Positions 7,170 through 54,000 of a stretch of 64,000 bases of DNA are shown here, piece after piece (positions within the stretch are counted from its first letter, which is position 1; each line of letters opens with the position of its first letter). Both the position numbers and the translations under genes were made by a program. A model generated the notes under the pieces. That model was not told the origin of the DNA and made no database searches. It was given only the letters and a program-made list of their open reading frames with translations. The stretch is taken from positions 102,982,001-103,046,000 of the forward strand of contig OX597821.1 of the NCBI GenBank assembly GCA_951406725.2. The letters run 5' to 3'. This DNA is from Octopus vulgaris. Taxonomy: Eukaryota.

Positions 7170-7925
7170 AAATGCTTAGCGGCATTTCATATTTTTACGT
7201 TTTGGGGTCAAATTACGCCGAGGTCAATTTTGCTTTTTATCTTTTGGGGATTGACAAAATAAGTACCATTGCAGCATTAGGGGCCATGCGAATCACTTAT
7301 CCCTTTTCTCAAAAACTTTGAAGCTTTGCGTGTATTATAGAAAGGCAAAATGTTAAGGGGCATTCCATTCGTCTTCACGTTCTGAATTCAGATTCCACCA
7401 AGGTCAATTTTACCTTTCGTCCTTTCGGGGTCAATAAATTAAGTACCAGTGAACCACTGGGTTCAATGTAATCGACTAGTCCCCTCTCCTAAATTTCAAG
7501 CCTTGTACCTTTCGTGGAAGGGATTATTATTATTGTTAAAAAGGTGTCAGAAACGTTAGCATCTCGGGCGAAATGCTTAGGCACATTTCGTCTTGTCTTT
7601 ACGTTCTGAGTTCAAATTCCACCGAGGTCAGCTTTGCCGTTCATCTTTTCTGGGTCGATTAAATAAGTACTAGCTACGCACTGGGGTCGATGTAATCGAG
7701 TTAATCCCCTCCTCCAAGCTGCCCTTGTGGCAAAAATTTGAAATCATTCTTTAAAAGGTGGCGTGCTGAGCTAGCGAAATGCTTAGCCGTATTTCATCTG
7801 CTTTTACGTTCTGAGGTCGACTTTGTCTTTCATCCTTTCGGGGTCGATAAATTAAGCACTGGAATCGATGCAATTGACTCGCTCCCTCCCCCAAAATTTC
7901 AGGCCTTATACGTATAGTAGAAAGA
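7170..7925 (+). mobile_element. Cluster of four diverged SINE family B copies
   Basis: Repeated ACGTTCTGAGTTCAAATTCC..GGTCGATAAATTAAGTACC motifs near 7200, 7380, 7600 and 7810. Confidence 0.75.
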
Positions 7926-7938
7926 ATTATTATTATTA

Positions 7939-8710
7939 TTGGCAGCGTTACAGAGGAGCATTGCCCGTTGGAGACAAGCTCTTTAGACATGGAAGTGCCA
8001 ACAGCCAAACCTGCCCAAGATGTTTGCAGGGTAATGAAACCGCCCTGCATTCAATAATTCAGTGCCCGTTGTGGGATTGTGTGGGGCAGCTGTTGTCGCG
8101 TGTAAGACCAATTCAGCTGTCTGTCGAGTGTATAGTAAAGATCAACGCACCATCTTCCCTTAGCAGAGAAGAAAGGCAGATCTTGCTCTGCTTAGTGTTT
8201 GTGGCAAAAGAGGCCGTATGGTGTAAGCGTCTGAAAGATTTGAAGAACAGGCACTTTCCTATCTGACCAAGTCCTCATCAATTTCTTCAAATATCATTTG
8301 AAGAGGAAGGTGAGGGTAGAGAGGGAGGTGCTGCCCTCTAGTGTGTTTATCAAAAGATGGTCGACAGTTGTAAAACTGGTGTGATTGAATGGATCTACTC
8401 TGAATATGTTTTTCTAAGCAGGAGGAAAGAAACTGGAAGAGGGCCTTGGGGATGGCAGAGTCATCTGGGACTGTTGTGTGGGGTTTACCCCGAATTACCC
8501 TAAGTGGACTGCCCCGCTATTTCTCTACTTTCTGTTCTATATATCCTCTGCTATATCCTTTAATGTGGTAGTATCTCCCCTTAATCGATATCAACCCCAC
8601 ATGTTTTTTGTAAATTTTTTTGCTGTGTTTTTTTCTGTGTGTGTGTGCTGTAACTCATCGTTCCATATTGTCCTCCATGTTTTGGGCCCTTGAGGCCAAT
8701 GAAAGAAATC
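7939..8710 (+). mobile_element. 5'-truncated Tx1/L1-like LINE: zf-RVT region plus 3' UTR, flanked by (ATT)n
   Basis: WQRYRGALPVGDKLFRHG...TCPRCLQGNETALHSIIQCP..W has the CxxC..ET..H....C zinc finger of L1/Tx1 ORF2. It continues with a frameshift to ..KRKVRVEREVLPSSVFIKRW. Confidence 0.8.
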
Positions 8711-29127: not shown

Positions 29128-29147
29128 AATATATATATATATATATA

Positions 29148-29379
29148 CCAATTAAGAAAAAGTGGACAGTCAACATGCTAGATATAGACGTCAAATCGCC
29201 ATTCACCACAAAAGATAATCTTTTGTGGTGAATGGCGATTTGACGTCTATATCTAGCATGTTGACTGTCCACTTTTCGTGTTCAGTCCTAATTGGTATAT
29301 ATAAATATTTTAATCTTCGGATTCTTTTTAATATGCTAGACCACTGGTCTTAATTGATAAATATCAATTTCTACCCTTA

Positions 29380-29388
<9 letters not shown>
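29148..29388. mobile_element. Palindromic element, copy 2 (centre-deleted), in (TA)n
   Basis: Same arms and tail as 1268-1537. The centre is reduced to CAAAAGAT-A-ATCTTTTG, and there is a ~10-bp deletion in the left arm. Confidence 0.85.
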
Positions 29389-29428
<40 letters not shown>

Positions 29429-29976: not shown

Positions 29977-30014
<38 letters not shown>

Positions 30015-30049
30015 ACAAGGAATGGCTGAGTATGTGCGTATGCGTACAT

Positions 30050-30091
<42 letters not shown>

Positions 30092-30122
30092 GGAATGGCT
30101 GAGTATGTGCGTATGCGTACAT

Positions 30123-30154
<32 letters not shown>

Positions 30155-30185
30155 GGAATGGCTGAGTATGTGCGTATGCGTACAT

Positions 30186-30217
<32 letters not shown>

Positions 30218-30248
30218 GGAATGGCTGAGTATGTGCGTATGCGTACAT

Positions 30249-30290
<42 letters not shown>

Positions 30291-30321
30291 GGAATGGCTG
30301 AGTATGTGCGTATGCGTACAT

Positions 30322-30355
<34 letters not shown>

Positions 30356-30386
30356 GGAATGGCTGAGTATGTGCGTATGCGTACAT

Positions 30387-30418
<32 letters not shown>

Positions 30419-30449
30419 GGAATGGCTGAGTATGTGCGTATGCGTACAT

Positions 30450-30485
<36 letters not shown>

Positions 30486-30577
30486 GGAATGGCTGAGTAT
30501 GTGCGTATGCGTACATGCACACACACACACACACACACACACACAAGGAATGGCTGAGTATGTGCGTATGCGTACAT

Positions 30578-30625
<48 letters not shown>
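29943..30625. repeat. Minisatellite: 10 identical 35-mers (CAAGGAATGGCTGAGTATGTGCGTATGCGTACATG) separated by variable (CA)n
   Basis: Units start at 29943, 30016, 30089, 30152, 30215, 30288, 30353, 30416, 30483 and 30544. Confidence 0.95.
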
Positions 30626-44098: not shown

Positions 44099-44585
44099 GA
44101 ACATGTATCATACATCAAAATGAAGCTGATCCTCTGTGGATCACATCCCTACATCTCAACATAGTCACCGTTTCTCTCAATAGCAATGTTCCACCTTCGA
44201 ATGAGAGCATGTATCCCTGCCCCGTAAAATTCTGTTGACTGTTCTTTGAGCCACTTCTTCACTACCTCCACACTCACCAGATTTAGCGCCTTCAGACCAC
44301 GAAAGAGGGTTTGAGAGGCAAACGTTATTCCAGTGACGAGGAAGTGAAAACTGTAGTGAAGAAGTGGCTCAAAGAGCAGTCAACAGAATTTTACGGGGCA
44401 GGGATACATGCTCTCATTCGAAAGTGGAACATTGCTATTATGAGAAACGGTGACTATGTTGAGAAGTAGGGATGTGATCTACTGCATGAAGGACAAGCTT
44501 CATTTTGATGTATGATGCATGTTCCTGTGTTGGTAATTATACCTGTCCTAAACAAAATGGCATTACTTTTTGACTCACCCTCGTA
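44099..44585 (+). mobile_element. Fold-back mariner-derived non-autonomous element
   Basis: Transposase C-terminus PPHSPDLAPSDH / KEGLRGKRYSSDEEVKTVVKKWLKEQSTEFYGAGIHALIRKWNIAIMRNGDYVEK* (stop 44467-44469). The right TIR is ATTACTTTTTGACTCACCCTCG followed by TA. 44099-44265 is an inverted copy of 44353-44524. Confidence 0.85.
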
Positions 44586-49385: not shown

Positions 49386-50001
49386 TGTTGTTGCTTAGCT
49401 TCCATCTCAGCTCTGACAAAGCAGACCTGTTATCAATGGCGTTCCAGCCGCGACTTCTCCATCTTACATTTCAGACATTTTTGAAAGACGGTAACAAGCA
49501 ATTTAAGAGTAATTTAGCTACTAAAGGGGAATAAATAACGACACGCTTCAGTCGGTTAGACATCACCAGCACAGCAGGAATTACGTTATTCCACGGTTTG
49601 AAAAAAGTTTTTTCCTTCACTAGTTTTAGTTGACTAAGCGATCTCAAAGAGGCTTGCCAATGATATAGTTGTTTTATACAATTTGTTATTCATTTTTCAA
49701 ATGAATGTATATTTTTCAAATGTATGTATATGTGCATGTAGATGTGTATAATATATATACATATATGTGTGTATGTGTGTATATATATAATATATATATC
49801 ATATACATGATATATTTATTATGCATATAATACATACATACACACACACACACACACATATATATAATATATATATAAATAAATATATATACACACATAC
49901 AATATATATATCATGTTAATTGTTTACAATTAACGTGAAAAAAATAGATAAACAGTTACCAGTGTAGCAATGCTAAAATGTCTTACTGACGAGTTTTATT
50001 T

Positions 50002-50097
50002 CTTCATTTTCCTGAAGAGAAGACTACACTGTTTTACACTATTTTATTCCTTTGGAATAATACCAATGACATCTTCGAAACATTTGTAGGAAGGAAG
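50002..50097 (+). ncRNA. Type I hammerhead ribozyme
   Basis: CUGAAGA at 50012-50018; stem II GAAGA/UCUUC; GAAA at 50077-50080; stem III AC-AUUU-GU; cleavage triplet GUA at 50086-50088; stem I CUUC(A)UUUUC pairing with GGAAGGAAG. Confidence 0.7.
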
Positions 50098-50182
50098 TAA
50101 AAGAATTTGAATAACACCTGCGTTTAACTCCATTTATATATATATATATATCCGTAAATGTAATATGTGACAATTATTCGGT

Positions 50183-50255
50183 AGCCATGATAAAACTCCC
50201 GAGTTTCGGACGTCGGGGTAGAAATCCACGGTGCCATCTCTTCAGTTATCTGGCC
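50183..50255 (-). ncRNA. Type I hammerhead ribozyme
   Basis: Minus strand reads GGCCAGAUAA-CUGAAGA-GAUG..CGUC-C-GAAA-CUC-GG-GAG-UU-UUAUC-A-UGGCU. Stem I is 5+5 bp with a single bulge, the triplet is GUU, and there is one extra C at the base of stem II. Confidence 0.65.
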
Positions 50256-50577
50256 ATCGGAAAAAAAACGCCCTTAGAGGTAGAGGCATAAAATGGACGA
50301 AGAAAATAAAAGAATATACATACATACATACATACATACATACATACATACATGCATATACAGGCTAAAGATCGCATTGAAGAATATGCTGTAAACTTTC
50401 TGAAGCTGATGCAAGCGTAAGCCGGTCAGTAACGTTTGATTATGTAGGCGCGTGCGTGTGCGCGTGCGCAAAACTCATTTTGTGAAAATAGACACCAAAA
50501 TATTTACAGCAAAACTTTTATAATGAAAACACTTTTTACGTGGAAACATAATCTTGTATGCATATTCTTTTAGTCTT

Positions 50578-50965
50578 CTATTCTTTTACTTGCTTCAGTT
50601 ATTTTACTGCGGCCATGCTGGAGCACTGTCTTTAGTCGCGCAAATCGACTCGAAGACTTATTCTTTGTAAGCCTAACATTTATTTTATTGGTCTGTATTG
50701 CCGAACCGCTAATTTTGCGGGGATGTAAACACACCAGCATCGGTTGTCAAGTGATGGTGAGGGGACAAACGTCGACACACAAATACACCCCACCCCCACA
50801 TATATTTGTATATACGACGGGCTTCTTACAGTTTCCGTCTACCACATTCACTCAGAAGGCTTTATGTGGCCCTAGGCTATAGTTGAAGCCACTTGCCCAA
50901 GGTGCCGCGCAGTGGAACTGAACCCGGAACCATGTGGTCGGGAAGCAATCTTCTTACAACACACA
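50578..50965 (-). mobile_element. SINE family A
   Basis: Family A sequence. Confidence 0.8.
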
Positions 50966-53671: not shown

Positions 53672-54000
53672 CGCCTGATGGAATGTTTGATAATGACAGA
53701 TATTTGATAATGTCTTGTTATAGACGTCTGTTAATTTCTAGTGTAATGCCAGAATGGAATATCTGGTGCAACTGACTAATTGTTTAATGAAATGTCTAAT
53801 GGAATGTCTGATGAGATTTTCTTGTTTGATTTAATGTTTGATGGAGCGTCATGTCTGATGGAATGTTTGATGAAATGTCTGAAAGAATTTCTAGTTTAAC
53901 GTATGATGGGATGTTTGATAGAGTACTTGAATAAGTATGTGAAAAGTCTGATGTAATGTTCGATGGAATGTCTGACAGAATATTTAAACAAGCAATATAA
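53672..54000. repeat. Degenerate ~12-bp tandem repeat ((C/T)TGATGGAATGT)
   Basis: TGATGGAATGT and TGATGAAATGT variants recur. Confidence 0.65.

Follow-up and report, generated by a model that had tools for sequence, protein, structure and literature searches.

Two segments of a 64-kb stretch of the Octopus vulgaris genome (64,000 nucleotides, hereafter the window) face each other on opposite strands across a run of TA repeats, and each had been predicted to fold as a type I hammerhead ribozyme. The locus raises the questions of whether the motifs are real, from what kind of element they derive and whether RNA is still cut at this site. We confirmed both type I motifs, A on the plus strand and B on the minus strand, at the places where the original prediction had put them (Table 1). 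Both cores are intact, as had been claimed, with CUGANGA, GAAA, U16.1 and H17 in the correct order, and the core-flanking pairs of helices I, II and III are present in each. In motif A, the core boxes are CUGAAGA (50012-50018) and GAAA (50077-50080); the base of helix II pairs 50019-50023 with 50072-50076 and an apical hairpin occupies 50044-50060, helix III has 2 bp and a 4-nt loop, and helix I pairs 50007-50011 with 50089-50093. The cleavage site is G-U-A at 50086-50088, with the cut predicted after 50088; H17 is A in this copy and C in most other copies of the family. The site, the cut and the three stems of the predicted fold of A stand, but the proposed outer part of helix I (50002-50005/50094-50097) leans on 50089-50092, which are seemingly absent from most copies. 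A second CUGANGA box lies inside element A at 49986-49992 (plus), 26 nt ahead of the main box; about 1% would be expected by chance for such a box in 75 nt, and neither of our descriptor scans found helices that fit it.

Table 1. Positions of the two hammerhead motifs, the repeat elements that carry them and adjoining features in the window
Feature	Position	Strand	Remarks or basis
Hammerhead A, type I	50007..50093	+	58 nt between core boxes; long helix II with apical hairpin
Hammerhead B, type I	50182..50256	-	31 nt between core boxes; extra C beside GAAA; U at cut site
Element A, probable 3' end of a high-copy repeat family with its 5' part lost	49920..50134	+	contig depth; 3' end read from sequence
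Element B, probable 3' end of another family, of higher abundance, with its 5' part lost	50152..50266	-	contig depth, loose ends
(TA)8T microsatellite, inferred shared target	50135..50151	.	sequence
3' tail of A, cut site to TA tract	50089..50134	+	46 nt; about 42 in copies without 50089-50092
3' tail of B, cut site to TA tract	50152..50193	-	42 nt; sequence
13-bp fold-back at the 5' boundary of A	49911..49938	.	family depth begins inside

Motif B has the core boxes CUGAAGA (50245-50239) and GAAA (50207-50204) on the minus strand, a helix II whose base pairs 50238-50235 with 50212-50209, a helix III of 3 bp with a 4-nt loop, and an 11-bp helix I with one bulge. Its predicted fold and its G-U-U site (50196-50194, H17 being U), with the cut between 50194 and 50193, were recovered by the descriptor scan at the position given for them, and the hairpins that had been described within the enlarged loop II of both motifs are present. 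One extra C, which the original prediction did not mention, separates helix II of B from GAAA; it is found family-wide, kept across copies save for a 10% change to U, and core-adjacent pairing requires that it sit beside G12 or be bulged after the first pair. The helix II base of B also contains an AUG, from which a 37-codon frame runs through the TA tract (50237-50121, minus), relying on the extra base of the window copy; the layout recalls that of Anolis Poseidon, in which the ORF begins at stem II.

A strict hammerhead descriptor applied to both strands of the 64 kb returned exactly two sites, A and B. The same descriptor gave no match in 300 whole-window dinucleotide shuffles and, in 300 block-wise shuffles, one match in two cases and two matches in none; this control is generous, because the descriptor was tuned after the two sites had been seen. 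A looser descriptor added a third match at 53808, which was dropped for its weak helix II and repetitive context. The two motifs are unrelated, as had been stated: shared sequence is limited to 9-mers in sense and a single 15-nt antisense match (E 0.035). Folding energies of the two window copies were no better than those of shuffles (z -0.51 and -1.17), and their free folding does not yield the hammerhead fold. Rfam, to which the original prediction had pointed as a check, matched neither motif: no hammerhead was returned at gathering score in the 64 kb, and the 17 weak matches up to E 10 over 49800-50500 included none. The long helix II likely explains this miss, and it is the sole unusual trait of the two motifs.

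To place the motifs among repeats, we surveyed the contigs of four of 24 listed sequencing runs (X1, X2, X8 and X13, which carry the labels of three organisms) at 80% likeness to 49905-50316. Three of the runs are labelled as DNA and X13 is only guessed to be RNA; coverage spans the whole interval except 50125-50163, the zone that holds the family 3' ends and any bridge between A and B. In X1, summed depth is 38 at 49905-49918 and 6,000-241,000 over 49919-50128 (peak 241,013), and B peaks at 1,053,029 vs 53 at 50283-50316. Peak depth over flank depth is about 4,500-fold for A and 19,800-fold for B in X1, and 7,700-fold and 45,000-fold in X2, values that serve as orders of magnitude only, as summed contig depth is not copy number. 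The ratio of B to A depth is 4.4, 5.9 and 6.9 in the three DNA-labelled runs, and A and B are therefore separate families. Run X13 covers both families and not the unique flanks, and among its listed places none had many contig ends, although contigs do not reveal RNA ends and so carry no information on expression. The window copies appear truncated on the 5' side. Loose ends behind 50265-50266 occur in all four runs, where other B copies extend on with different letters, so the window copy of B was cut short, leaving its family at 50266 in every run. The sign of truncation is weaker for A, where it consists of falling depth, about tenfold lower over the 5' part than the 3' part, a gradient that may partly reflect divergence. 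A contig of X2 bridges B and the right flank, differs from the window at 14 places and by 3 gaps, and may represent an orthologous insertion, filler or a small subfamily. Between the 5' break of B and an (ATAC)n tract lie about 50 nt of low-copy sequence (50266-50316).

No second copy of A or B was found within the window. The exact pattern of A had no match in metagenome contigs, and that of B none in metagenome, genome or viral contigs; these negatives carry little weight, as the collections are not expected to include this animal. Neither family is described in the papers covered here on octopus hammerheads and repeats, and variants from molluscs or with a long helix II may be among those in the supplementary figures of PMC4209133. 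The giant squid genome paper lists 235 Rfam hammerhead matches.

The same contigs bear on whether the folds belong to the families or only to these two copies. The variant evidence consists of 40 of 83 rows, unphased, of which 31 were tested against pairs; the other nine fall at 50091-50094 beside an indel (four), at 50199-50200 in loop III (three) and in flank (two), and some of the four would break helix I pairs in the register of the window copy. Letters frequent in other copies turn both G.U pairs in helix I of A into G-C, at 50007 (59% in X1, 0% in X8) and 50010 (43% and 87%), and close three mismatches in helix II (50024, 50029 and 50070; 91-99%). A change at 50084 to G or A (91% of depth, X1) restores a self-complementary helix III, and a C at 50088 (78% of depth, X1) gives a GUC site. 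Positions 50089-50092 seem to be missing from most A copies: a four-base gap takes up 14% of local depth, they are bypassed by loose ends at 50093, and they are covered at about 2,200 vs 144,000 immediately downstream. In B, four letters frequent in other copies repair helix II (50211, 50220, 50231 and 50232; 78-99%, X1 and X8), and loose ends reveal other copies with one base fewer in loop III.

Five G.U pairs had been named before the variant table was seen, and four of them become Watson-Crick through letters frequent in other copies (50007, 50010, 50211 and 50220), a result with a rough chance of 0.00009 to 0.012. With the X1 majority letters all listed pairs form, 29 of 29 in A and 27 of 27 in B, vs 25 and 25 in the window copies, the middle helix II pairs in these lists having been picked after the table was seen. 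Pair-breaking variants are also listed, at 50214 (6-15%), at 50070 to A (up to 12%) and at 50091-50092 (up to about 27% of low depth, beside the indel), and one core variant of A, C3 to U, makes up 0.3% (X1), 4% (X2) and 13% (X13) of depth. Since letters frequent in other copies repair the mispairs of the window copies, we conclude from these comparisons that the hammerhead folds are probably family properties and that the two copies here have decayed since insertion; both are without helix II pairs that their families keep, and A is without the dimer palindrome.

The anatomy of both motifs matches that of the 3' hammerheads of (TA)n-targeting Penelope-like elements (PLEs), in agreement with the original prediction. 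Each motif is part of its own high-copy family, and we consider it probable, at about three chances in four, that the two copies are 3' ends, truncated on the 5' side, from two families of Penelope-like retrotransposons (of Hydra type, most probably) that inserted independently and tail to tail. Hammerheads of Hydra-clade PLEs are, like A and B, of type I; they have the same sense as the element and lie close to its 3' end (PMC8557442), as A and B may also do. The helix III letters of the B family are those of Hydra-2_aMil and Penelope-16_HM (PMC8557442 File S2); a palindromic helix III around one central base is shared by the B family and many Hydra-clade families, and U stands at the cut site in 10 of 25 of them, as in B (PMC8557442). 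The distance of 42-46 nt from cut site to tract in A and B falls in the range of the 10 of 25 families whose cut site lies 25-50 nt from the 3' end, the other 15 lying outside that range (positions in PMC8557442). Nearly all Hydra-clade families target (TA)n, including the octopus family Hydra-1_Obim of Octopus bimaculoides, which is likewise listed without a pLTR (PMC8557442). B has the same core box and first helix II bases as Hydra-1_oBim; identity of A or B with this family is ruled out by its listed flanks and stems. Octopus vulgaris is rich in Penelope-like elements, of which 31 families have been called recently active (PMC13282606).

A and B also differ from the published elements. Their helix II regions of 58 nt (A) and 31 nt (B) exceed by far those of every Hydra-clade family listed in File S2, in which the extra C of B is also absent, and no published consensus in the supplement of PMC8557442 matched A or B, a search in which line breaks can hide a short motif. 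EN+ PLEs are marked by a single ORF with a PLE RT plus a GIY-YIG domain at the C-terminus, a DKT motif and a CxCX5C linker; Pfam found no RT or GIY-YIG frame near A or B among the window reading frames, and no pLTR or partial-tandem layout appeared, there being no second copy in 64 kb. Solo truncated ends are expected to be without a pLTR, so its absence at the locus is accounted for. We describe A and B as resembling Hydra-type PLE 3' ends and not as members of that clade, with a stronger case for B than for A. The kind itself is known, and A and B are two new families within it.

Comparison with the PLE hammerhead variants of PMC4209133 gives a similar picture. There too the motifs are dispersed and solo within families, have a G10.1-C11.1 pair and carry a palindromic helix III that points to dimers, and most are described as solo, probably truncated PLEs (PMC4209133). 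In contrast to these variants, A and B are not loop-less minimal hammerheads, are without the extra base that usually separates positions 9 and 10.1, have a helix II exceeding the reported 7-8 bp, and face a partner from a different family. The octopus Naiad PLEs (Naiad_Obim and Naiad_Ovul) also target (TA)n, and a half core is flagged in Naiad_Ovul (PMC8557442); A and B are not octopus Naiads, whose 3' ends were dissimilar by eye and by short-motif search. Naiads are described as being without canonical hammerheads (PMC8557442). In File S5 of that paper, the record preceding Naiad-3_Nbra has a 3' end that resembles, by eye, a hammerhead with both boxes and a long helix II insert.

Other mobile elements also carry hammerheads. 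One or both motifs could be solo monomers derived from non-LTR retrozymes, non-autonomous elements made of hammerhead repeats in tandem, which spread via small circular RNAs and may, under that reading, derive from PLE terminal repeats. Animal non-LTR retrozymes (PMC7229834; bioRxiv 10.64898/2026.07.22.740005) share with A and B a non-coding nature, type I hammerheads with short helix III and common solo copies, molluscs included, and the covered length of A (about 215 nt) fits reported monomer sizes. We nevertheless consider this origin unlikely. The defining traits of retrozymes are tandem repeats and circular RNAs, neither of which is seen for A or B in the contig data; a retrozyme origin, one of those that had been proposed, is unsupported at the locus, for the window contains no tandem copy and, among 10 listed joints, none ties the 3' end of A back to its 5' end (rows near the repeat were dropped). 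B continues upstream in other copies, and a tail that abuts TA together with U17 suits PLE 3' ends. Still less probable, at about one chance in twenty, are SINE-like or other non-PLE retroposons that bear hammerheads and use TA tracts: schistosome SINE-like elements do bear hammerheads and the octopus is rich in SINEs, but neither an A box nor a B box occurs on either strand of 49851-50330, a stretch without the 5' part of B, and the hammerhead anatomy agrees with the PLE rows.

If the motifs are PLE 3' ends, their facing layout would need no more than a shared target. Both element copies abut the (TA)8T tract, an observation from one locus only, and contig depth and sequence bear out the claim that two different hammerhead-bearing repeat families meet at a single TA microsatellite. 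Each parent element may have been copied into a nicked (TA)n tract by target-primed reverse transcription, which would have stopped after about 215 nt in A and 115 nt in B. TA reads identically on both strands, so insertion in either orientation would be possible; a single event priming both strands would join two 5' ends rather than 3' ends, and two events are therefore needed. The two families thus likely inserted independently, tail to tail, into one tract. Outside simple repeats, the window has three hairpin loci of the kind seen at the 5' edge of A, where the fold-back is possibly a short inverted duplication made at insertion, a scar. The window holds 63 tracts of (TA)6 or longer. On an assumed 2.7-Gb genome (2.8 Gb is given for O. 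vulgaris), about 47 tracts would be expected to hold both families at about 5,400 and 23,400 copies, and about 2 at 1,000 and 5,000. The facing pair requires no special mechanism, as shared TA targeting predicts about 2 to 50 per genome. PLEs also tend to insert beside existing PLE copies (PMC6765202), and some hammerhead pairs on opposite strands lie 100-700 bp apart (PMC4209133).

The symmetry of the layout, with predicted cut sites 105 nt apart and tails nearly equal in length, might instead suggest that A and B make up a single composite element, with a hammerhead on each strand as in an ambisense circular replicon, and the TA tract falls within 50125-50163, outside contig coverage. The depths of A and B differ 4- to 7-fold in the DNA-labelled runs, however, and none of the 10 joints listed connects the two. 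Chance origin of both folds is excluded by the shuffled controls, the repair of pairs and the G.U statistics. Taken together, a composite element or a pair of chance folds is barely credible, and independent insertion of two PLE-like ends remains the preferred reading.

The surroundings are microsatellite-rich animal DNA with several dispersed repeat families. Pfam, run on 252 window reading frames (251 of the 282 listed and one more), gave a single match above curated cut-off, to zf-RVT at 7856-8263 (plus; E 2.6e-06), a non-LTR retrotransposon remnant. A frame at 44287-44466 (plus), which we take to resemble the C-terminus of a mariner transposase, had no Pfam support. Two repeat copies at 1249-1554 and 29129-29405 are 90% alike and MITE-like, with a long perfect inner palindrome; a two-part SINE-like repeat has copies at 50565-50963, 400 nt from A and B, and at many other places; and an array at 29986-30610 comprises about 9.5 units of 63 nt, each made of a (CA)n run and a fixed spacer. 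Two minus-strand exon look-alikes were picked by eye: 58257-58178, a candidate first coding exon that has a GTAAGT donor and a frame whose start resembles a signal peptide, and 43486-43452, a possible 35-nt second exon in a compatible frame. As candidates, they would place A and B in a 14.7-kb intron with B in sense. An exon scan paired the 43452 donor with other acceptors only and did not list the first exon; the candidate peptide had no Pfam match and no relative by protein search, which is weak evidence.

Within such an intron, B could cut the host pre-mRNA and A the antisense RNA. That the copies are active here in this way is very improbable. GUU is the slowest standard hammerhead site. 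Both cores are intact, GUA and GUU are among the listed cleavable sites, GUC and GUA being the fastest, the exon look-alikes would bracket the site, and the 11-bp helix I of B with its 3-bp helix III and 4-nt loop could permit some monomer activity. Against activity, both copies carry pair-breaking differences from their families, as would arise under neutral decay, and the host gene is without database support from Pfam or protein search. The forced hammerhead fold lies above the best fold by 5.2 (A) and 6.8 (B) kcal/mol, and its share of the computed ensemble is about 1e-5 for A and 2e-6 for B, under a model that undervalues hammerhead junctions. Each copy is also the sole one on its own strand in 64 kb. 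The helix III self-duplex of A is computed at -2.9 kcal/mol here and at -6.0 or -7.0 with the letters of other copies, and that of B at -7.7 here and -9.7 with one base fewer; the helices III of A and B do not pair mutually (-0.1 kcal/mol). Published PLE hammerheads gave no monomer and low dimer cleavage (PMC4209133), and the Anolis Poseidon hammerhead cleaved but was dispensable for insertion in vitro, with no RNA-seq ends at the site (PMC11167929).

The original suggestion that transcripts of either strand could self-cleave here is accordingly not supported, given the lost helix II pairs, the lost palindrome of A, the single copies and the energetic cost of the fold. With worn motifs and no second copy on the same strand, both are predicted to cut slowly or not at all; by these models both copies are probably inert at this site, and B could show slight monomer cleavage. 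The RNA of a parent element would be cleaved by its hammerhead, most readily in a dimer formed via the palindromic helix III.

A broader role is conceivable. Two undescribed families might give this genome tens of thousands of hammerheads with a long helix II, overlooked by Rfam and by descriptors with short spacers, of which enough intact sense copies in long introns would cut nascent pre-mRNA by pairing, via palindromic helix III, with a distant copy on the same transcript; B would be one such cutter and the TA tract a hotspot cut on both strands 105 nt apart. We consider this whole proposal very improbable. With or without it, two abundant hammerhead families with an unusually long helix II join a published kind, and standard models undercount them. 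The finding would carry greater weight if intact copies do cut host pre-mRNAs, and the size of the families permits a test by the orientation bias of copies in introns.
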